Positions 29,958-39,677 are shown, counted from the stretch's first letter. The stretch is DNA of 64,000 nucleotides from a bacterium (GCA_963662285.2 CAXXMV010000002.1:256001-320000); one strand, 5' to 3'. The notes: generated from the sequence alone by a model not told the origin. Numbers and translations are program-made.

Positions 29958-32042
29958 ATGAAAAAAATTATGGGTTTGATGATTTCTTTATTGTTTTTGT
30001 TGAATTGCGTAAACGTGATGGGTGACGTGATTACAACCGGAACTTTGATTCGCGAAATGGTTGATTTACAGCGGTTGGGCGATTTTCCCGATCCTTCATA
30101 TAAGACGGTTCAGTTCTCATCTTATGATCATAGAAGCACTCTCCCCGGAGGTCCGGAATGGTTCGCCAATAGCGATGGATTCGGTAAGGAACCGAAAGCG
30201 AATTTTGATGCGGTGATCAAAGAACCCGGATCAGGCGATAAGGGCGAATATCTGATCTGCGATGTTGAGGGGCCGGGCGCCATTGTTCGAGTATGGACTG
30301 CTGCGATAAAAGGCGATATCCGGATGTATTTGGATAATTCCAGGTATCCAGTCTATGATGCTTCGGCGCAGGATTTCTTGCAAAAAACCTATAACCCATA
30401 TCTAGATAAGGCCGGTTTGGATGATAAGCGGTTTGATGGCGCTTTCTTCCAATTAAATGCTGGTTATTATCCGATTCCATTCGCGAAGAAATGCCGCATC
30501 GTCTGGATTGGCAATAAGAAGGATATTCACTTTTATCAGATTCAAATCAGGCTTTATGAGAAAAACGCTGAAGTAAGAACCTTTGCGCCAGAGGATTTAT
30601 CTACTTATAAAAAAGATATCGAAGAAACAATAGATGTCTTGAAGAATCCTGATTTGAATTGGGATTATAAATCGACTGATAAGCCATTCTCTATTTCAAC
30701 AATTGTTAAATCCGGAGAAAATCAAGAGGTTTTGTTTCAGGATGGTCCTAAAGCCATAGAGCGTTTGGCGTTACGCGTAAAAGCCGGAAATATCGATAAG
30801 GCCTTGAGACAGACCATTTTACATATACATTTTGATGAATATCCCTGGGGGCAGGTGCAATCTCCAATCGGTGATTTTTTCGGCGTTGCTCCGGGTATCA
30901 ATCCTTATGATTCCGTTCCCTTTAGCGTAAAAAACGATGGCGAGATGATCTGCCGGTTTGTAATGCCTTTTAAGAGTAATGTCCGGATTATGTTGGAGAA
31001 CAAGGGTAAACAGCCCGTCTCGGTTTCGGGATCAGTGCAATTGATGGATTATGATTGGGACGATGATGCTTCCATGCATTTCCGTGCGCGGTGGCGGGTG
31101 GATCATGATCTGGTAGCATCGAATGACCGGGTTCAGGACCTTCCGTTTCTGATTGCGAATGGAAAAGGGGTATATGTCGGAACAGCTTCTTATCTTCTGA
31201 ATCCTAACGATGTGCCATCATCTTATGGCAACTGGTGGGGTGAAGGCGACGAGAAGATTTTTGTGGATGATGATTTCAGGCCATCGACATTCGGGACCGG
31301 TTCAGAAGATTATTATAATTACGCCTGGTCATCAGGTGATATTTTTACTTATCCCTACTTCGCTCAACCGAGAAATGATGGGCCCGCCAATCGCGGTTTC
31401 GTTACCAATAACCGGTGGCATATTGTTGATCCTCTGCCATTTCAATACCGCTTGAGTTTCTATATGGAACTTTTTAGCCACGAAACCACTCCAGGCGTGT
31501 CATACGCCAGGATGTCATATCATTATGGAAAACCGGGGATGATGGATGATCATCTTCCTATCACAGGCGAAGACGTGCGTCATTTGATTCTGCCCGAAAA
31601 TTGGGCGCCTGCATCCCGTATGGGAGCGGGAAACTCGGTCTTCTATGCAGCAGAGACTTTGTTGAAATCCTCCAAAGATATTGATTTTGTATATGATAAC
31701 CTTTGGCAAGGCGGAGCTTTGATGGTTTGGCGGCCTGGGGAGAAAGGCCAAGTGTTGGATATGAAATTTTCAGTTGAAGAAGATGGGAATTATACTATCC
31801 GGCTGGTCTGCGCCCGTACGCCAAAATCGGGGCTATTCTCGGTCAAACTTGATGATGCATCGCTTGATTTAGGGGGTAATGTCGATCTTTTTGATCCTTA
31901 TCGCATTCTTCTGCGACCAATAAGATCAAAAAAGGTTGAACTCAATAAAGGTGATCATACGCTAAGCCTTCAATTTGAAGGGAAAAACGGTTCAAGTCAT
32001 GGTAATGAGATTGGCATCGACTTTCTGTGGCTGCAGAAATAG
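29958..32042 (+). CDS. Secreted GH172/DUF2961 glycoside hydrolase, long form with C-terminal beta-sandwich
   Basis: QFSSYD, GPGAI.R.W, P.GDFFG, WWGEGDE, FGTGSEDYY. Confidence 0.88.
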   Translation: MKKIMGLMISLLFLLNCVNVMGDVITTGTLIREMVDLQRLGDFPDPSYKTVQFSSYDHRSTLPGGPEWFANSDGFGKEPKANFDAVIKEPGSGDKGEYLICDVEGPGAIVRVWTAAIKGDIRMYLDNSRYPVYDASAQDFLQKTYNPYLDKAGLDDKRFDGAFFQLNAGYYPIPFAKKCRIVWIGNKKDIHFYQIQIRLYEKNAEVRTFAPEDLSTYKKDIEETIDVLKNPDLNWDYKSTDKPFSISTIVKSGENQEVLFQDGPKAIERLALRVKAGNIDKALRQTILHIHFDEYPWGQVQSPIGDFFGVAPGINPYDSVPFSVKNDGEMICRFVMPFKSNVRIMLENKGKQPVSVSGSVQLMDYDWDDDASMHFRARWRVDHDLVASNDRVQDLPFLIANGKGVYVGTASYLLNPNDVPSSYGNWWGEGDEKIFVDDDFRPSTFGTGSEDYYNYAWSSGDIFTYPYFAQPRNDGPANRGFVTNNRWHIVDPLPFQYRLSFYMELFSHETTPGVSYARMSYHYGKPGMMDDHLPITGEDVRHLILPENWAPASRMGAGNSVFYAAETLLKSSKDIDFVYDNLWQGGALMVWRPGEKGQVLDMKFSVEEDGNYTIRLVCARTPKSGLFSVKLDDASLDLGGNVDLFDPYRILLRPIRSKKVELNKGDHTLSLQFEGKNGSSHGNEIGIDFLWLQK

Positions 32043-32835
32043 CGGTGGATTGTTGCGAATGATTTTTAAAAGCACTTGATTTTTGATGGAGCGCGGTGTT
32101 ATCATTACTGTAATTTTAGATATCTTGTGAATGCTATTTTGGGTGGTTCGGGAGTTTTTGTTTAAGGTAAGATTGTTTCATAAAGTGAAATAATTAAGCG
32201 TACTATGGTTGATTTTCCTCACTAGTCGAGATGATTTTCGATAATATTGTTTTGTGTATATTTCCCGAAAAGGAGATTATTCCACTTTGAATTAAATAAT
32301 CCGATAGTTAGACTATATTTTGTGTTTTAACATAAGGCGTATAAATATATTCTGCATAAGTGATTGTAATTCAATACTTTTTTAGCAGTATTTAATTATT
32401 TTTCCTTTGACTAAAGGATATTTAACATTTTTCGTAGTTGTGATAATGATGATTGGAATCAGATCAAAAAGCAAAATAGGTCATTGATTTTTTTAGGAAT
32501 ATATGGTTCAATGTTTTGTAGTTATGCAGATTAACATAAAACAAATGCTCTAAGGTTTGGAATTTTTATAAATTATTAATTTGAATTCGGTTGCGGTTGA
32601 GGGAAGTTTTTGAAATCAGCTAAGCATTGCATCTCGTGGAGAAAATTGAATTTTTCTTCTGCTAGGATTGATTGGTATATCATAGCAGCAAGCGAAGTTG
32701 CTCGATTATAGTATGAGCCTTTTCGATAATGAATTCCTTTCTCCCGCCGCATTCCATATCGGGATCCAAATCAGGTTTTCCGTGAAAAGCGGTCGTACGA
32801 TTTGGGATGGTAAAGGATAAGGGAGAAAACCACCG

Positions 32836-33639
32836 ATGAATCAAGTGGCTGCACCTACAAATACAACGGCGATGATATTAGAAACTGCCAAAAAAGAAGA
32901 CAAGGGTTTCATTCATCCTTCAGTGTGCATTGATCCAAGCGTACAACTTGGAGAAGGCGTGATATTGCACGCGAATGTAGTCATTGAACGAGCTGTACGT
33001 ATTGGCGCCAATGCAGAGATTCATGTTGGTTGTTATATTGGAGAAGATTGCGTAATAGGTGAGAATACTGTTTTGTATACGTCAGTAACCTTGCGTGAAA
33101 AGACCAGGATTGGCGCACGGGTAAAGATTGCTGCGGGAGCGGTTATAGGCAGCGATGGTTTCGGGTATGTGAAGCAGGAAGATGGCGTTAATTTTAAGGT
33201 TCCCCAAGTTGGTTATGTAATTATAGAGGATGATGTTTGCATTGGTTCAAACACAACAATTGATAGAGCTACGTTAGGTAAAACGACTATAAGCAAAGGC
33301 GCTATAATCGGAAATCTGGTTCAAGTCGGTCATAATGTATGCGTCGGTGAGAATTCGAGGATTGGAGACAGCGTCGGTGTTTGCGGGAGTTGTAAGATAG
33401 GGAGTCATGTTTCAATCGGGCAAGGCGTAGGCATGGTTGGTCATATTCGTATTGGCGATCATGCGGAAGTGGCGAGCGGTTCAGGCATCAGCAAAGATGT
33501 TGCGGATGGCGTGAAGATGCAAGGCGTACCTGCAATGGATGAAGAGACCTATGAAAAGTTTTATTCATACCTGTCAAAAATGCCGGAATTCGTTTCCCGC
33601 CTTAAGGATATAGAAGACAAAATTAAGTCTAAAGGATAG
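32836..33639 (+). CDS. lpxD: UDP-3-O-acylglucosamine N-acyltransferase-like hexapeptide protein (N-terminally short LpxD)
   Basis: Hexapeptide repeats, [34 protein letters not shown]; in-frame TAA at 32818 prevents extension. Confidence 0.8.
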
Positions 33640-33853
33640 GTTTTTATTATTATTAGATTTTTTTATGAAACCTGAAAAAGAATTTATTCATAACTTATTT
33701 TTTGCTTCCTTCCGCTTTATCTCTTTAAACCTTTACAATATCTATATAAAAGGCTTTATTCAAATTTACTAACAATAAATCGAATTATGATTAGATTTCA
33801 GATAGATTATCAGTTTTACCTTTAATTAAAAAATATTTCACTAGAGGAGTATT

Positions 33854-34993
33854 ATGGTTCAGGAACGTATTGTAACGTCAGAATCCGTAACGGAAGGACA
33901 TCCAGACAAAATCGCAGATCAGATATCAGATGGAATTCTGGATGCTATCTATGAACAAGACCCGAATGGCCGCGTCGCCTGTGAAACTTTGGTGACGACA
34001 GGTTTGATCCTAATCGCAGGAGAAATAACTACTACTGCCAATATTGAATATTCGAAAATCGCTCGTTCTGTGGTAAATGATATTGGTTATAACAATGCTG
34101 ATTATGGCTTCGATTGCAATACCTGCGCTGTAATGGTTACGCTTGACCGCCAGTCGCCTGATATCTCGCAAGGCGTTGATGAAGGCGAAGGGCACGAACA
34201 AGGCGCTGGCGATCAGGGTATGATGTATGGCTATGCGACCAATGAAAATGATTCTTATATGCCAATGCCAATTACTTTGGCGCATAAATTGACCATGCGT
34301 TTATCTGAAGTGCGTAAATCCGGCGTCTTGCCTTGGGTTCGCTCGGATGGAAAATCGCAAGTCAGCGTTGTTTATGAGGATGGCAAAGTCAAACAAGTTG
34401 ATGCGGTTGTAATTTCAACGCAACATGCTCCGGAAATTTCTCAACAAGAGATTACCGATTCGATTACTGAAGAAGTTATCAAAAAAATCATTCCAGAAAA
34501 TCTTATGCATAGCGGAACCAAGCTGCATATTAATCCAACCGGGCGTTTTGTGGTTGGCGGCCCGATGGGCGACTGTGGTTTGACTGGCCGTAAGATTATC
34601 GTTGATACATATGGCGGCGTTGGACGTCATGGCGGGGGCGCTTTCTCAGGTAAAGATCCATCCAAAGTAGACCGTAGCGCTGCTTATGCTGCGCGTCATG
34701 TTGCTAAGAATGTAGTTGCAGCAGGTTTGGCTGATCGTTGTGAAGTTCAATTGGCCTATGCCATTGGCGTGGCTAATCCGGTGTCGATTGACGTGGATAC
34801 TTTTGGCACGGCCAAAATTCCGGAAGAGCAGATTTCTCAGAAAGTTAAAGATGTTTTCGACCTGCGTCCTTCAGCCATTATCCAGCGCTTGGATCTGCGT
34901 CGCCCGATTTATCGCGCAACGGCTGCTTATGGTCATTTCGGTCGTCCCGAATTCCCGTGGGAAAAATTGGATTATGTTGATAAACTAAAATAA
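33854..34993 (+). CDS. metK: S-adenosylmethionine synthetase
   Basis: [39 protein letters not shown]. Confidence 0.99.
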
Positions 34994-35041
34994 TGGATTC
35001 ATTTATGTTTTTGATGAATCTATCAAATTGATACTATTATT

Positions 35042-35069
35042 ACAAAGCCCCTGCTCAGGGGCTTTGTTT
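35042..35069 (+). terminator. Intrinsic terminator after metK
   Basis: ACAAAGCCCCTG-CT-CAGGGGCTTTGT followed by TT. Confidence 0.85.
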
Positions 35070-35218
35070 GTATTGAAAATCAGGGAATTTTTGTCTGGAT
35101 TACTTGCATAATATTTTTATATACGAAATTTCTACATCTACGTTATTTGATTCAACGACTCCTTTATTGAATTAAATGCAATAAGAGATAACCTTTTAAT
35201 ATAATCAAAGGTGAGGCT

Positions 35219-35944
35219 ATGCGTCTCCAGGAACTTGGTAAGAGAATTCGTACGCAACGTGAAAAGTTAGGACTGAAACAGATTGATCTGGCGCATGCGC
35301 TCCAAGTCAGTCCTCAAGCGGTCTCTAAATGGGAGCGTGCGGAAAATGGACCGGATATAACCATTCTTGGTGAACTAGCTAAATTGCTGGGCGTTTCAAC
35401 CGATTGGCTGTTGGGGCTTCATGCCGAAGATAAAGAAGTATTTGAAGCGACTGTTTTTGCCTCCAGTATTAGAGGCGCCTATAAAAAATCCCGGAAAATG
35501 GAACCGGGTGGTTTTGCGTTGTGGGCTAATGGCTTATTTTTTTCTATTACGGAATCTGTTTTGCGATTTGATGCAGTGCCCATCAAATGTATGGGAGATC
35601 AGTTTCTATGCTTTTTTTCCGGTTCAATGCATCAGGAACGGGCAATTCAAGCCACCCGTTTAACCAAAGAAATGATCGCTGAAGATTTGATAGTGGGATT
35701 GAGCTGCGGAGAGATTTTTCTCGGTTCAGTGGGACATCCTGATTATGCTCATCCAGACATTATGGGAGAAATAGTAAATCTTGCTTTTCTAACCATGGGA
35801 TGGGCTGAAACCAATACGCAAACGCATGTCGCTGTTACCAAGGATGTTATCAGCAGTATTGAGGATGTAGAAATAGGCGAAACGGAATCAGCCATATTCA
35901 AAGGCATTGAAAGTTCTGTTGAAGTGTGTGAGCTTTTGTTCTAG
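35219..35944 (+). CDS. XRE-family HTH regulator fused to a degenerate class III nucleotide-cyclase-like domain
   Basis: R..LGLKQ.DLA..L.VSPQAVSKWE...PDI..L..LA.LLGVS.D.LLG, then IK.MGD..LC.F, GLSCGE...G.VG, DIMGE.VNLA. Confidence 0.8.
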   Translation: MRLQELGKRIRTQREKLGLKQIDLAHALQVSPQAVSKWERAENGPDITILGELAKLLGVSTDWLLGLHAEDKEVFEATVFASSIRGAYKKSRKMEPGGFALWANGLFFSITESVLRFDAVPIKCMGDQFLCFFSGSMHQERAIQATRLTKEMIAEDLIVGLSCGEIFLGSVGHPDYAHPDIMGEIVNLAFLTMGWAETNTQTHVAVTKDVISSIEDVEIGETESAIFKGIESSVEVCELLF

Positions 35945-36005
35945 AAATATTCCATAAATTTGATTACAAAATTATATTAATTAACTTATGAAAGAGGTAA
36001 ATGTA

Positions 36006-37466
36006 ATGAGTCAAGATGCAAAGAAAACAGGGATTGATTTATCCACGATTAAATTACCCGATTATTCAGGTCTACCATATAAGGTTGCTGATTTGGAACT
36101 GGCTGATTTCGGGCGTAGAGAATTAGATATTGCTGAAGAAGAAATGCCGGGTTTGGTGTCATCGAGAAAAAAATATGGCGTTGAGAAGCCTTTATCCGGG
36201 GCGCGGATTACGGGTTCGCTCCACATGACCATTCAAACGGCTGTTTTGATTGAAACATTGAAAGAACTGGGCGCTGATGTTCGCTGGGCGACATGCAATA
36301 TCTTCTCAACTCAGGATCACGCCGCTGCGGCGATTGCCAAAACTGGAACGCCGGTATACGCCTGGAAAGGTGAATCGCTGGAAGACTATTGGGAATGCAC
36401 CTTGCAAGCGCTGTCTTTTCCCGGTGGGAAAGGGCCTGAGATGATAGTCGATGATGGCGGCGATGCTACGTTGCTGATTCACCGGGGATATCAGGCTGAA
36501 GAGGATTCTTCTATTCTGGATGTACCTACCGATGTACGTGAACTAGCTATAATCAACGCTCTTCTGAAACGTGAATTGCAGAAGAATCCTAATCGCTGGC
36601 ATGATGTTGTTAAAGAAATGCGCGGCGTGTCGGAAGAAACCACTACCGGCGTTCATCGTCTCTATGAGATGATGGAGAACAAGAAACTTCTCTTCCCTGC
36701 TATTAATGTTAATGATTCGGTTACTAAATCGAAATTTGATAACCTATATGGATGCCGTGAATCTCTGGCTGATGGAATTAAAAGAGCCACAGATGTCATG
36801 GTTGCGGGCAAGATTGTCTGCGTATGCGGTTATGGAGATGTCGGTAAGGGCTGCGCTCAGTCAATGCGTGGATTCGGCGCCCGTGTCTTGGTTACCGAAA
36901 TTGATCCGATATGCGCTCTGCAAGCCGCAATGGAAGGTTTTGAAGTTACTACTTTGGAAGATGCGCTTAGCGAAGCCAATATTTTCGTCACCACTACCGG
37001 CAACTGCGATATCATCCGAGTCGAGCATATGGAGAAGATGCTGGATCAGGCCATTGTCTGCAACATCGGTCACTTTGATAATGAAATCCAGGTTGATAAG
37101 CTGAATAATTATCCCGGCATAAAAATGTTGACTATCAAACCTCAGGTGGATAAATATACTTTCCCGACGGGGAATTCCATCTTCATGCTGGCGGAAGGCC
37201 GTCTGGTAAACCTTGGTTGCGCTACGGGGCATCCATCATTCGTTATGTCTAACTCATTCACCAATCAGGTATTAGCGCAGATCGATCTATGGAAAGATCC
37301 CAAAGAGATCGGCGTTTACCGTTTATCCAAGAAATTGGATGAAGAAGTCGCCCGTCTACACCTGGCGAAATTGGGCGTTAAAATGACGAAATTAACCCAG
37401 GCTCAGGCCGATTATATCGGAGTCCCGGTTGAAGGTCCCTACAAGCCAGAGCATTACCGGTATTAA
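36006..37466 (+). CDS. ahcY: Adenosylhomocysteinase
   Basis: [61 protein letters not shown]. Confidence 0.99.
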
Positions 37467-37499
37467 TTTTGTTGCGGAATAGATAATTGAGTGATTATC

Positions 37500-37533
37500 A
37501 AGGGGCTGCGCTTAACCGTGCAGCCTCTTTTTT
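37500..37533 (+). terminator. Intrinsic terminator after ahcY, overlapping the stop of the convergent gene
   Basis: AAGGGGCTGCG...TGCAGCCTCTT followed by T run. Confidence 0.7.
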
Positions 37534-38288
37534 GTTGGATCAGTGAAGGTGCATGGGACGCCGACCAGGCATTTTCCGCATACGTCCGTGGTTCCGAATT
37601 GCGTCAATCGCGCATTGTTATCAAGGCACATTTCATGACAGCGGAAGCGGTCGAATTGCATATCAGTGAAGGCGTGGTTGACGCATCTCTCCATACATTT
37701 TTTACATGACTGGTCGAATTTATAGAGACAATGTTCATGATCCGGCCTGGATGACGGGCTGATCTCTGCGGTTGTTATCATGCTACCCAGTCTTCCACCG
37801 CACCCTTCTTCTGTGATCAACATATTATTCATGCCGAAAGTTCCTAGGCCAGAGATATAGGCGATATGTCTATGTGACCAGTCGCTGATCAACTTTTCCT
37901 CATCAAAATTATGGGTTGCCGGAATGACCTTTGATTGATGGCCGTGTTGGAGCATAAAATTATTCAGATGGTTGCTTAAATCCATAATTAACTGATTCGT
38001 AATAATATACGATTCGGCCCATAGGTCAGAGCAATCCTTATTTTTGATATTGCTACTGGTAATTTCTTTAATAAATGGAATAAAGAATGCGATAACGGTT
38101 TTTGCGTTTTGCAGAAGGTCATTTGGATGAGCATGGGATGGAGAGACTACGGTTTTCAATTCATTGAAGAGTGGATCGTTGGCATCGGCGTAGCCGACTA
38201 ATGGAGTTCTCCAATAATTTTCTATTCCATTTTGTATGGAGTAATTACTAATATATTTTTGAATTTCTTCGGTTATTAATGTCTTCAT
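37512..38288 (-). CDS. Epoxyqueuosine reductase (QueG)-like Fe-S protein
   Basis: WSHRH.A...GLG.FG.NN.LIT..G..GRLGS, C..C...C.V and CGKC..GVPC clusters. Confidence 0.8.
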   Translation of the reverse strand: MKTLITEEIQKYISNYSIQNGIENYWRTPLVGYADANDPLFNELKTVVSPSHAHPNDLLQNAKTVIAFFIPFIKEITSSNIKNKDCSDLWAESYIITNQLIMDLSNHLNNFMLQHGHQSKVIPATHNFDEEKLISDWSHRHIAYISGLGTFGMNNMLITEEGCGGRLGSMITTAEISPSSRPDHEHCLYKFDQSCKKCMERCVNHAFTDMQFDRFRCHEMCLDNNARLTQFGTTDVCGKCLVGVPCTFTDPTKKRLHG

Positions 38289-38471
38289 GGTTATAGATTC
38301 ATATTAGATTATTAATTTTCACATAGTTTATCTTTTAAGAAGAGAAAGTTGAACCTATAGATAGAACTGAATTACCTCTCTGCACTTGATTTTATAAGGT
38401 AGTCTATGTCATTGTTTAGGCGTCTTTTAATTTGCATTCAAGATAATAATTCCAATGGAGGAAGATTCTCG

Positions 38472-39677
38472 ATGAATATTAAAAAAATAGTATTTCGAAT
38501 GAAATATCGAATATTAGCAGCTCTAACTGTTTGTTGTTTTTCATCTACGGTAATTGCCGAGAGTCCGGCGGGAATGCTGGATAGCCTCTCGAAGAAACGG
38601 GACGCCGTTACCAAGCGCATTTCCAGCTTCGACCAGACGGGCGGCAATAGCGATAGGATTGGCATCGAACCGGGCGCCACGGCGGTTATCGCTCAAATTG
38701 ATAAGCCCGGCATCATTAAACATATCTGGATGACAATAGCTCATTCAGATAAAAACTACCGCCGTATGATGGTTTTACGCATGTACTGGGATGATGAAAA
38801 AGAACCGAGCGTCGAAGCGCCGATAGGCGACTTTTTTGGTCAGGGATGGGGAGAAGAGTATCTCTATAATACGCTGCCATTGGCTGCTGGACCTACCAAT
38901 GGCCGTGGATTGAACTGTTATTTTCCTATGCCTTTTTCCAAACGGGCGCGGATCGAAGTCGTTAATCAATCAGAGAAAAAATGCAACTCGCTCTATTTTT
39001 ATATTGATTATGAGGAACATAAAAAAATATCGAAGGATCAATTACGCTTTCATGCCTGGTATAATCAGGAACTTACTGAACCAATGAAAGGCGATGAGAA
39101 CGAATGGAACGCTCTGCGCAGCCCGGCTGATGAGAATCCTACTGATGAAGATAATTACCTGATAATCGACGCTGAGGGCGAGGGGCATTATGTCGGCGTG
39201 AATTATTACGTCAGTTGCCCTTCTCCGATGTGGTATGGCGAGGGCGATGATATGTGGAATATTGATGGCGAGAAATGGCCCTTTTCGCTGCATGGAACAG
39301 GGACGGAGGATTATTTCAATTCATCCTGGTGTCCCAAGGAAGTATTTATGCATCCATTTTTCGGGTATCCCCGCGTGAATCATCAAGAGGGATGGATGGG
39401 GCGGACTCACTGTTACCGCTTCCATATTCAAGAACCCATTATATTCAAGAAATCATTACGCGGCTCCATAGAACATGGCCATGCCAATAGCATGACTGAA
39501 GAAATCGCCACGGTGGCTTATTGGTATCAGAAAGAACCGCATAAAACGTTTCCTGCTCTGGCGGCAGCAAAGGACCGGCTGCCCCGTTCAGGGATTGGCG
39601 TTTCTGAGATTCATCGCTGGAGAGACGCCTGGAGAGAAAAACAAGGCGGAGGCGTTTTGTGGGGGAATGAGCGGTAA
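38472..39677 (+). CDS. Secreted GH172/DUF2961 glycoside hydrolase, short form
   Basis: SSFD.TGGN.D, PG.I.HIW.T, LRMYWD.E..PSVE.P.GDFFG, WYGEGDD, GTGTEDYFN, IEHGHAN. Confidence 0.9.
   Translation: MNIKKIVFRMKYRILAALTVCCFSSTVIAESPAGMLDSLSKKRDAVTKRISSFDQTGGNSDRIGIEPGATAVIAQIDKPGIIKHIWMTIAHSDKNYRRMMVLRMYWDDEKEPSVEAPIGDFFGQGWGEEYLYNTLPLAAGPTNGRGLNCYFPMPFSKRARIEVVNQSEKKCNSLYFYIDYEEHKKISKDQLRFHAWYNQELTEPMKGDENEWNALRSPADENPTDEDNYLIIDAEGEGHYVGVNYYVSCPSPMWYGEGDDMWNIDGEKWPFSLHGTGTEDYFNSSWCPKEVFMHPFFGYPRVNHQEGWMGRTHCYRFHIQEPIIFKKSLRGSIEHGHANSMTEEIATVAYWYQKEPHKTFPALAAAKDRLPRSGIGVSEIHRWRDAWREKQGGGVLWGNER

Follow-up and report, generated by a model that had tools for sequence, protein, structure and literature searches.

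What does a gene that joins a helix-turn-helix (HTH) domain of the XRE family to a cyclase-like domain do between metK, which encodes S-adenosylmethionine (SAM) synthetase, and ahcY, which encodes S-adenosylhomocysteine (SAH) hydrolase? The question is raised by a 64,000-nucleotide stretch of bacterial DNA (GCA_963662285.2 CAXXMV010000002.1:256001-320000), referred to here as the window, whose own genome (G000) measures 7.3 Mb and contains this regulator gene as a single copy. A preliminary description of the window had proposed that a catalytically dead cyclase fold was repurposed to sense an adenosyl ligand, which would make the protein a new type of methyl-cycle regulator. Comparative genomics gives good support to the reading as a new type of methyl-cycle regulator, through gene neighbourhoods and through a conserved operator-like element found at the regulator's own ahcY operon and at metH; the part of the proposal that concerned metK was not supported. 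We consider it rather probable that the protein is an autoregulated one-component regulator of the methyl cycle, with a pseudo-cyclase pocket for an adenine nucleoside derivative, that controls its own ahcY operon and metH.

The protein and its cyclase-homology domain

The gene and the predicted architecture of its product are as follows:

35219..35944, plus strand: regulator, 241 aa; XRE HTH at about residues 5-65, linker at residues 66-73, degenerate class III cyclase-homology domain at about residues 74-240

The N-terminal domain is assigned to the XRE family per Pfam, in which HTH_3 matches residues 10-64 with an E-value of 3.4e-16 and 59.4 bits (cut-off 23). Its best sequence matches in the Protein Data Bank (PDB) are P22 C2 (1adr, E 2e-13), 7t8i (E 1.3e-12) and the 434 repressor (1per, E 6e-8). 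No ArsR or methyltransferase family was found on the regulator in the Pfam and NCBIfam scans, and the protein does not have the architecture of SahR, the methyl-cycle regulator discussed further below.

For the single sequence, the Pfam match of the C-terminal domain to Guanylate_cyc (residues 76-219) reaches 19.1 bits, under the cut-off of 21.9. Nevertheless, on profile and model evidence the class III cyclase fold of this domain can be regarded as secure, since a family profile and Foldseek both match solved class III cyclases. The profile (alignment A1, 36 family members), when run against the PDB, retrieved Cya2 (2w01, E 9.6e-15), CyaB (3r5g, E 7.6e-13), Rv1625c (4p2f, E 1.1e-9) and CyaC (1wc0, E 4.7e-9), and Foldseek with the AlphaFold2 model of the regulator (mean pLDDT 92.4) matched 2w01, 1wc1 and 3r5g at E-values of 3e-12 to 3e-11 with a probability of 1.00. 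The cyclase landmark motifs quoted in the preliminary description (FASSIRG, IKCMGD, GLSCGEIFLGSVG and DIMGEIVNLAFL) are all present as written.

The catalytic positions were mapped via the printed Cya2 alignment and the residue spacings of Rv1625c, with the roles of the Rv1625c residues taken from excerpts of PMC4174876, and residues were counted over 134 aligned family members:

First metal Asp, Rv1625c D256: S83 in the regulator; S in 77, T in 37, G in 9, A in 4 and D in 2 of 134
Substrate-specifying Lys, Rv1625c K296: K123 in the regulator; K in 122/134
Second metal Asp, Rv1625c D300: D127 in the regulator; D in 132/134
Second substrate-specifying residue, Rv1625c D365: D180 in the regulator; D in 134/134
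Ribose Asn, Rv1625c N372: N187 in the regulator; N in 132/134
Phosphate/transition-state Arg, Rv1625c R376: L191 in the regulator; L in 124/134, R in 0/134

The first metal Asp and the catalytic Arg are missing, as had been described. Competent class III cyclases have two metal Asp residues, and here S83 stands in place of the first while D127 is kept; similarly, of the transition-state Asn and Arg, N187 is kept and the Arg position is occupied by L191. The ATP-type Lys/Asp specifying pair of class III cyclases is present as K123 and D180. Under canonical residue rules, these positions support the view of the regulator as a pseudo-cyclase, which, without the first metal Asp and the phosphate/transition-state Arg, would be unable to cyclise nucleotides. 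Like the class III cyclases Cya2, CyaC, CyaB and Rv1625c, the regulator has the fold, a predicted head-to-tail dimer, the Lys/Asp pair, the Asn and the second metal Asp. Unlike them, its family has neither the first metal Asp nor the Arg, joins the cyclase fold to a DNA-binding domain, and has invariant residues of its own (N104, T111, R141, H173 and Y176 across the 134 members). By residue offsets, the segment from the second metal Asp to the second specifying Asp is also 12 residues shorter than in Rv1625c.

For the cyclase-like domain, a homodimer is predicted, head-to-tail as in class III cyclases. ESMFold2 was run on two copies of residues 70-241, with SAH carried along unscored, and yielded a median score of 0.91, versus 0.01 for the best control; the mark set for this score was reached by 20 of 30 proteins solved as same-chain pairs and by 1 of 23 solved as single chains. 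At least 92% of the contacts are common to the runs, and the partner pLDDT is at least 90. The predicted interface includes K123, D180, N187 and L191 together with the family-invariant N104, T111, H173 and Y176, and the list of contacts (contacts only, not coordinates) fits an interface that spans the canonical active-site region. We would like to note that, because solved cyclase dimers exist, passing the mark may reflect likeness and is not proof of dimerisation. In mammalian adenylyl cyclase, a degenerate second site at the C1-C2 dimer interface binds forskolin (PMC4174876, excerpt). The pocket proposed here would be comparable, as a degenerate interface pocket for a regulatory small molecule; the mammalian C1-C2 pair keeps one catalytic site, whereas both sites of the regulator homodimer would be degenerate and its output would be transcription.

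Gene neighbourhoods and a shared putative operator

The family is large, strongly conserved and present in many phyla. A word-indexed protein search (E <= 0.001) returned 946 proteins; in the best 120 of these 946, identity is never below 55% nor coverage below 84%, and the source names of the homologs include Omnitrophica, Hydrogenedentes, Sumerlaeota and Latescibacterota. Synteny was read from 85 full-length loci, 34 from reference genomes and 51 from metagenomes, and neighbouring open reading frames (ORFs) other than ahcY were scanned with Pfam and NCBIfam (111, 67 and 8 ORFs). Directly downstream of the regulator and on the same strand, ahcY is found in 28 of the 85 loci (13 of the 34 reference-genome loci and 15 of the 51 metagenome loci), and these ahcY-linked loci are labelled Latescibacterota, Hydrogenedentota and Nitrospiraceae, plus metagenome contigs. 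One metagenome locus has ahcY directly upstream of the regulator instead. Other neighbours, in the same orientation unless stated, are metF, which follows ahcY in Latescibacterota; metE (L110, L121 and L123, and upstream in L027/L117); metH, divergent from the regulator in L121; the adenosine deaminase gene (L013); purA, encoding adenylosuccinate synthase (L095, L097, L108, L109 and L119); and the threonine synthase gene thrC (L012 and L030; TIGR00260, 221.9 bits). Gene order across these loci supports a linkage of the homologs to SAM-cycle genes far above chance. The linkage on which the earlier proposal depended is borne out for ahcY and for metH, metE and metF, and is not seen for metK, which per the tblastn tables stands beside the regulator in 0 of the 85 loci.

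At Syntrophorhabdia-type loci, the regulator is followed by a small ORF and then by thyX, QueF or a gene for a pterin-binding methyltransferase. The small protein encoded 3' of these regulators is 122-135 aa long (L021:6781-7149, L027:6710-7114 and 11 more loci; alignment A2), precedes thyX, metE or QueF, and has a mean column identity of 74%; locus L027 belongs to the cultured Syntrophorhabdus aromaticivorans UI. The small protein retrieved no Pfam or NCBIfam match, and two hydrophobic segments and a four-Cys motif at its C-terminus can be made out by eye.

A search for inverted repeats in the AT-rich spacers of the window alone yielded several palindromes that were indistinguishable from chance, and cross-locus comparison alone was informative. 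When regulator-upstream regions from different phyla and with widely differing G+C content are aligned, they share TCAAC-N5-(C/G)(G/T)TNA, which directly precedes TTGnnn, then 16-17 bases, then TAnnnT; a second copy of this operator-like element lies 21 bp upstream of the first. At Syntrophorhabdia-type loci the element is a perfect palindrome, TCAAC-N5-GTTGA, present in 11 loci versus at most 2 for any palindrome in shuffles, and it is likewise followed by a second site and a TTGA-type -35 box. A position weight matrix (PWM) of about 12 bits was refined on the regulator-upstream regions and counted over 70 non-redundant regions. It places a site of at least 9 bits in 49 of the 70 (50 shuffles: mean 3.4, maximum 7) and paired sites 20-22 bp apart in 28 of the 70 (shuffles: mean 0.04, maximum 1; opposite strand: 0), both counts being descriptive only because the PWM was trained on the same regions.

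In the window, the element and the promoter that it adjoins lie as follows:

35131..35145, plus strand: distal operator-like site TCTACATCTACGTTA; PWM 7.0 bits; exactly 21 bp upstream of the proximal site
35152..35166, plus strand: proximal operator-like site TCAACGACTCCTTTA; PWM 13.8 bits; abuts the -35 box
35167..35194, plus strand: putative promoter, read by eye; -35 TTGAAT at 35167-35172, 16-nt spacer, -10 TAACCT at 35189-35194

From this pattern we infer that the protein binds the TCAAC motif. Four relatives (G010, G015, G022 and G025) have TC(T/C)AC-N5-CGTNA at the same place as the distal site, and in these four the promoter hexamers stay in place although the sequence of the spacer varies. 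A second operator in the spacer between the regulator and ahcY was sought in 25 loci and none of weight was found, with three scores above 9 falling in or near the ahcY start. The locus with adenosine deaminase (L013) has no good site upstream of the regulator and has a 16.1-bit site between the regulator and the deaminase gene. In one relative (G015), a gene for a HigA-like XRE antitoxin (108 aa; L236:860-1460) lies between metK and the regulator, and the double operator with its -35 box occurs there twice, before the inserted antitoxin gene (site 900) and before the regulator (site 1426).

The phage-type XRE repressors that provide the best HTH matches (P22 C2, the 434 repressor and the ICEBs1 Xre-family regulator) act as dimers on short inverted repeats. 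In phage repressors, tandem operators allow cooperative binding, and lambda cI reportedly activates PRM from a site next to the -35 box. Unlike these proteins, the regulator has a cyclase-fold C-terminus and no phage dimerisation or cleavage domain, and its predicted targets are chromosomal metabolic genes.

metH, metK and the relatives

The genome-wide and metH operator tests used sequence outside the PWM training. In the window's genome, TCAAC-N5-GTTGA occurs at 20 places, only one of which lies outside long open frames. This sole palindrome (C8:1324579, on another contig) precedes the metH start by 125 nt, and a second, half-conserved site follows the palindrome 20-21 bp further downstream. 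In a regulator-bearing Latescibacterota genome (G001), metH is preceded by TCAACGACCTGTTGA, TTGGTC, 17 bases and TATCTT. The test was extended over 31 genomes (the window's own and 30 relatives), 6 of which carry the regulator. metH was located in 5 carriers, and in 4 of these 5 a site of at least 13.5 bits lies upstream of it at -123 to -134; among 17 non-carriers, 1 has a site of 13 bits or more, there at -280.

The pattern TCAACNNNNNSKYNATTG has 40 occurrences in five carrier genomes versus 7 for a reversed control, and 5 of the 40 are the regulators' own sites. Apart from these and a site at metH in G001, the candidates were rejected after ORF and Pfam checks, as they lie in coding sequence or beside unrelated or unnamed genes (for a peptidase M16, GmrSD, an SNF2 helicase and a solute-binding protein). 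An unfiltered PWM scan of the window's genome yielded 317 single hits that score 14 bits or more, plus 9 pairs, almost all in coding sequence, and was uninformative because a 12-bit motif is too weak for it. G001 also contains two near-identical motif-bearing copies, TCAAC-N5-CGTCATTGCGGCATGC, which lie 931 bp apart (L185:1501 and about 2432; C1:1783632 and 1784563) within about 1.1 kb that has no long ORFs.

The order metK-regulator-ahcY seen in the window recurs in three same-family carriers (G010, G015 and G022), while in same-family relatives without the regulator metK and ahcY adjoin. By this comparison of gene order, the position of the regulator between metK and ahcY is therefore a clade feature. 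Non-carriers have a different palindrome of about 22 bp, TATATCCG-N6-CGGATATA, between TTGCAT and TATAAT. It lies upstream of metH in 11 of 17 non-carriers versus 0 of 5 carriers, and also upstream of metK-ahcY in non-carriers (metH loci L216-L226, L233 and L234; metK loci L246, L247, L249-L252 and L255; relatives G006-G023), and it looks like the operator of another methyl-cycle repressor. Two alternative control systems for these genes thus appear to alternate among close relatives, as would be expected if the XRE-cyclase protein regulates the methyl cycle wherever it is present. In one genome (G032; L261/L270, C5:17206-18599), the ahcY that follows the regulator matches in two pieces in different frames (query 21-306 and 304-486), which is a frameshift or an assembly error.

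Around the regulator, the window contains the following genes and hairpins:

33854..34993, plus strand: metK (SAM synthetase); TIGR01034, 609 bits; a neighbour and not a predicted target
35042..35067, plus strand: terminator-like hairpin 3' of metK; 11-pair stem (6 G-C), 4-nt loop, T-rich tail
35988..37466, plus strand: ahcY (SAH hydrolase); TIGR00936, 614.8 bits
37500..37529, plus strand: terminator-like hairpin ending the operon; 12 pairs (7 G-C), then TTTTTGTT

The regulator lies close upstream of ahcY with no terminator between, as stated in the preliminary description; the gap is 43 nt to the first ATG, and the 61 nt given there correspond to a second ATG, at 36006. Terminator and PWM scans of this gap found no terminator-like site and no operator, and ahcY is probably co-transcribed with the regulator. 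The regulator had also been placed directly after metK. That order is correct, and the hairpin at 35042-35067, which had gone unmentioned, separates the two genes; an inverted-repeat search gives it 12-nt arms that are 100% complementary. We rejected metK as a target, with the hairpin between, no operator upstream of metK in G000, G022 and G015, and adjacency seen only within the same family. In the window, the best PWM scores upstream of metK are 2.9 (plus strand) and 6.5 (minus strand). The metK upstream regions of G000, G022 and G015 (33720-33745, L271 and L272) share AAAC(A)CCTTTAC(A/C)A at about 115-140 nt upstream of the start codon, which is probably the -35 region of metK's own promoter.

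No SAM or SAH riboswitch had been seen at the locus, and Rfam agrees, as no family reached its gathering threshold over 31500-38500. The sole match at E <= 1 in that region, to 2dG-II (19.4 bits, inside metK on the minus strand), is unrelated. Two DUF2961 proteins flank the locus (29958-32042, plus strand, 694 aa; 38406-39677, plus strand, 423 aa), and at a metagenome locus (L103) another DUF2961 gene adjoins the regulator. Convergent with ahcY lies a 258-aa Cys-rich ORF (37512-38288, minus strand) that has no Pfam match and bears a weak likeness to QueG, an epoxyqueuosine reductase (30 bits versus a cut-off of 200).

A proposed mechanism and its rivals

In the mechanism that we propose, the N-terminal XRE HTH would read the 15-bp element TCAAC-N5-(C/G)(G/T)TNA, which in some targets is the perfect palindrome TCAAC-N5-GTTGA, at two sites that lie 21 bp apart and upstream of or abutting the -35 box. 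The cyclase-homology domain would form a head-to-tail dimer with two degenerate pockets at its interface, neither of which would cyclise nucleotides. With their Lys/Asp pair and ribose Asn, these pockets may bind a phosphate-free adenine nucleoside derivative, because the specifying pair and the Asn are kept while the phosphate Arg and one metal ligand are lost. Residue conservation and the kinds of neighbouring genes point to an adenosyl effector. SAH would be the most plausible, followed by adenosine or SAM, because SAH links ahcY, metH, metE and metF (homocysteine removal) with adenosine deaminase (adenosine removal); purA and thrC fit an SAH signal less directly. Ligand occupancy would alter DNA binding or the contact with RNA polymerase, and the outcome would be control of the regulator-ahcY operon and, in the window's genome, of metH, while targets in other lineages may include metE, metF, adenosine deaminase, purA and thrC.

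Activation is favoured as the mode of control, because the sites lie at or upstream of the -35 box (about 15 nt upstream of it at the metH genes of G000, G010 and G015) and never over the -10 box or the start, and because the promoter hexamers of the regulator itself are weak. In its fullest form, the proposal would have SAH (or adenosine) bound in the degenerate homodimer pockets via the Lys/Asp pair, and the protein, once liganded, activating promoters from its tandem sites beside the -35 box. SahR and the SAH riboswitch would then be joined by a third, unrelated SAH-responsive solution, one that occurs in many mostly uncultured phyla and has been swapped with another regulator within one bacterial family. 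We offer this full form tentatively, and judge its chances to be somewhat below even.

Several observations weigh against a methyl-cycle regulator of this kind. No site of at least 9 bits is found in 21 of the 70 upstream regions, the ahcY-linked group has a degenerate right half-site (CGTCA instead of GTTGA), and the putative promoter at 35167-35194 was not reported by a consensus promoter scan. About ten Verrucomicrobia-type loci, which have a phospholipase D gene upstream and a convergent class II aldolase gene downstream, have neither methyl-cycle neighbours nor the motif. One carrier relative (G022) has no site at metH, and the scan of five other genomes with TCAACNNNNNSKYNATTG added metH in one (G001) as the sole methyl-cycle target. 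The neighbours purA, thyX and QueF fit SAH loosely, and an adenine or one-carbon signal fits them equally. D127, kept in 132 of 134 family members, would not obviously be needed by a pure nucleoside sensor. Finally, the sign of regulation is not readable from sequence.

The alternatives differ in what they make of the cyclase-like domain and of its neighbours. It seems unlikely to us that the protein is a methyl-cycle regulator whose cyclase-like domain serves as a dimerisation scaffold without a ligand, with control exerted via its own level, a partner protein or modification. The invariant N104, T111, H173 and Y176 lie in the predicted subunit contacts, so their conservation could serve dimerisation alone. 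However, the purine and ribose positions are kept (K123 in 122, D180 in 134 and N187 in 132 of 134) although the Arg is never present, and a metabolite is the normal signal for metabolic operons such as ahcY and metH. We are likewise doubtful that the regulator responds to a non-adenosyl effector, such as homocysteine, methionine, folate, or bicarbonate as in some soluble cyclases. The neighbours thyX, metF, metE and the pterin-binding methyltransferase share folate one-carbon units and not adenosine, and MetR-type homocysteine control is known for metE and metH (PMC4239095, excerpt), yet the adenine-specifying Lys/Asp pair is retained, and adenosine deaminase, purA and the dominant partner ahcY point to the adenosine half of SAH.

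An active cyclase with a non-canonical mechanism, which would couple cAMP or cGMP synthesis to DNA binding, appears very improbable: the fold is intact and the protein keeps one metal Asp along with the Lys/Asp pair and the Asn, but 127 of the 134 members have S, T, G or A in place of the first metal Asp, none of the 134 has the Arg, and both missing residues are needed in the established two-metal mechanism (PMC4174876, excerpt). That an ordinary phage- or toxin-antitoxin-type XRE regulator lies beside ahcY by chance is hardly credible, since, although NCBIfam returned for the HTH sub-threshold matches only, to phage repressor and antitoxin families, ahcY synteny extends over several differently labelled lineages (28 of 85 loci), the operator is shared with metH and depends on the presence of the regulator, the gene is single-copy, and Pfam detected no mobile-element genes among its neighbours in the window.

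An autoregulated methyl-cycle regulator with a pseudo-cyclase pocket would, by analogy of function, have its closest known counterpart in SahR, a parallel without relationship and with no domain in common. SahR, per excerpts of PMC4239095, is an SAH-responsive repressor of the ArsR family that acts on SAM-cycle genes in Alpha-, Delta- and some Gammaproteobacteria. It regulates its own gene, ahcY, metH, metF and metK form its core target set, joined by metE in some genomes, and it has a palindromic operator, a patchy occurrence within lineages and a co-occurrence with the AhcY route of SAH recycling. The likeness lies in autoregulation (predicted here), the ahcY/metH/metF/metE gene set, the palindromic operator, the patchy occurrence and the AhcY route, and the operator seen at both the regulator-ahcY operon and metH resembles SahR-type control, as read from DNA sequence alone. 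SahR differs in that it joins an ArsR HTH to a SAM-methyltransferase-like effector domain, whereas the regulator joins an XRE HTH to a degenerate cyclase domain. SahR also targets metK, whereas here metK has no operator and the operator abuts or precedes the -35 box.

The SAH riboswitch, MetR and MetJ systems control gene sets (ahcY, metH, metE and metF) that overlap with those found here, and the MetR motif is given as ATGAA-N5-TTCAT and the MetJ box as AGACGTCT (PMC4239095, excerpt). Both motifs differ from TCAAC-N5-GTTGA, and no Rfam riboswitch is present at the locus. Pseudo-enzymes are well known as sensor domains for some folds. A full-text literature search, whose scope did not include subscription journals and supplements, retrieved no description of this regulator family, nor of any DNA-binding regulator that has a class III cyclase fold for its effector domain; architectures with an HTH and a cyclase are mentioned generally in an excerpt of PMC4886424, for other proteins and without a methyl-cycle function.

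With a defined operator and a small predicted regulon, the idea is directly testable. If the effector is SAH or adenosine, the family would explain methyl-cycle control in Latescibacterota, Hydrogenedentota, Planctomycetota, Syntrophorhabdia and other groups without known regulators or riboswitches, and it would provide a compact natural biosensor for an adenosyl metabolite. It would also mean that the loss of one Asp and one Arg suffices to turn a cyclase site into a ligand pocket.

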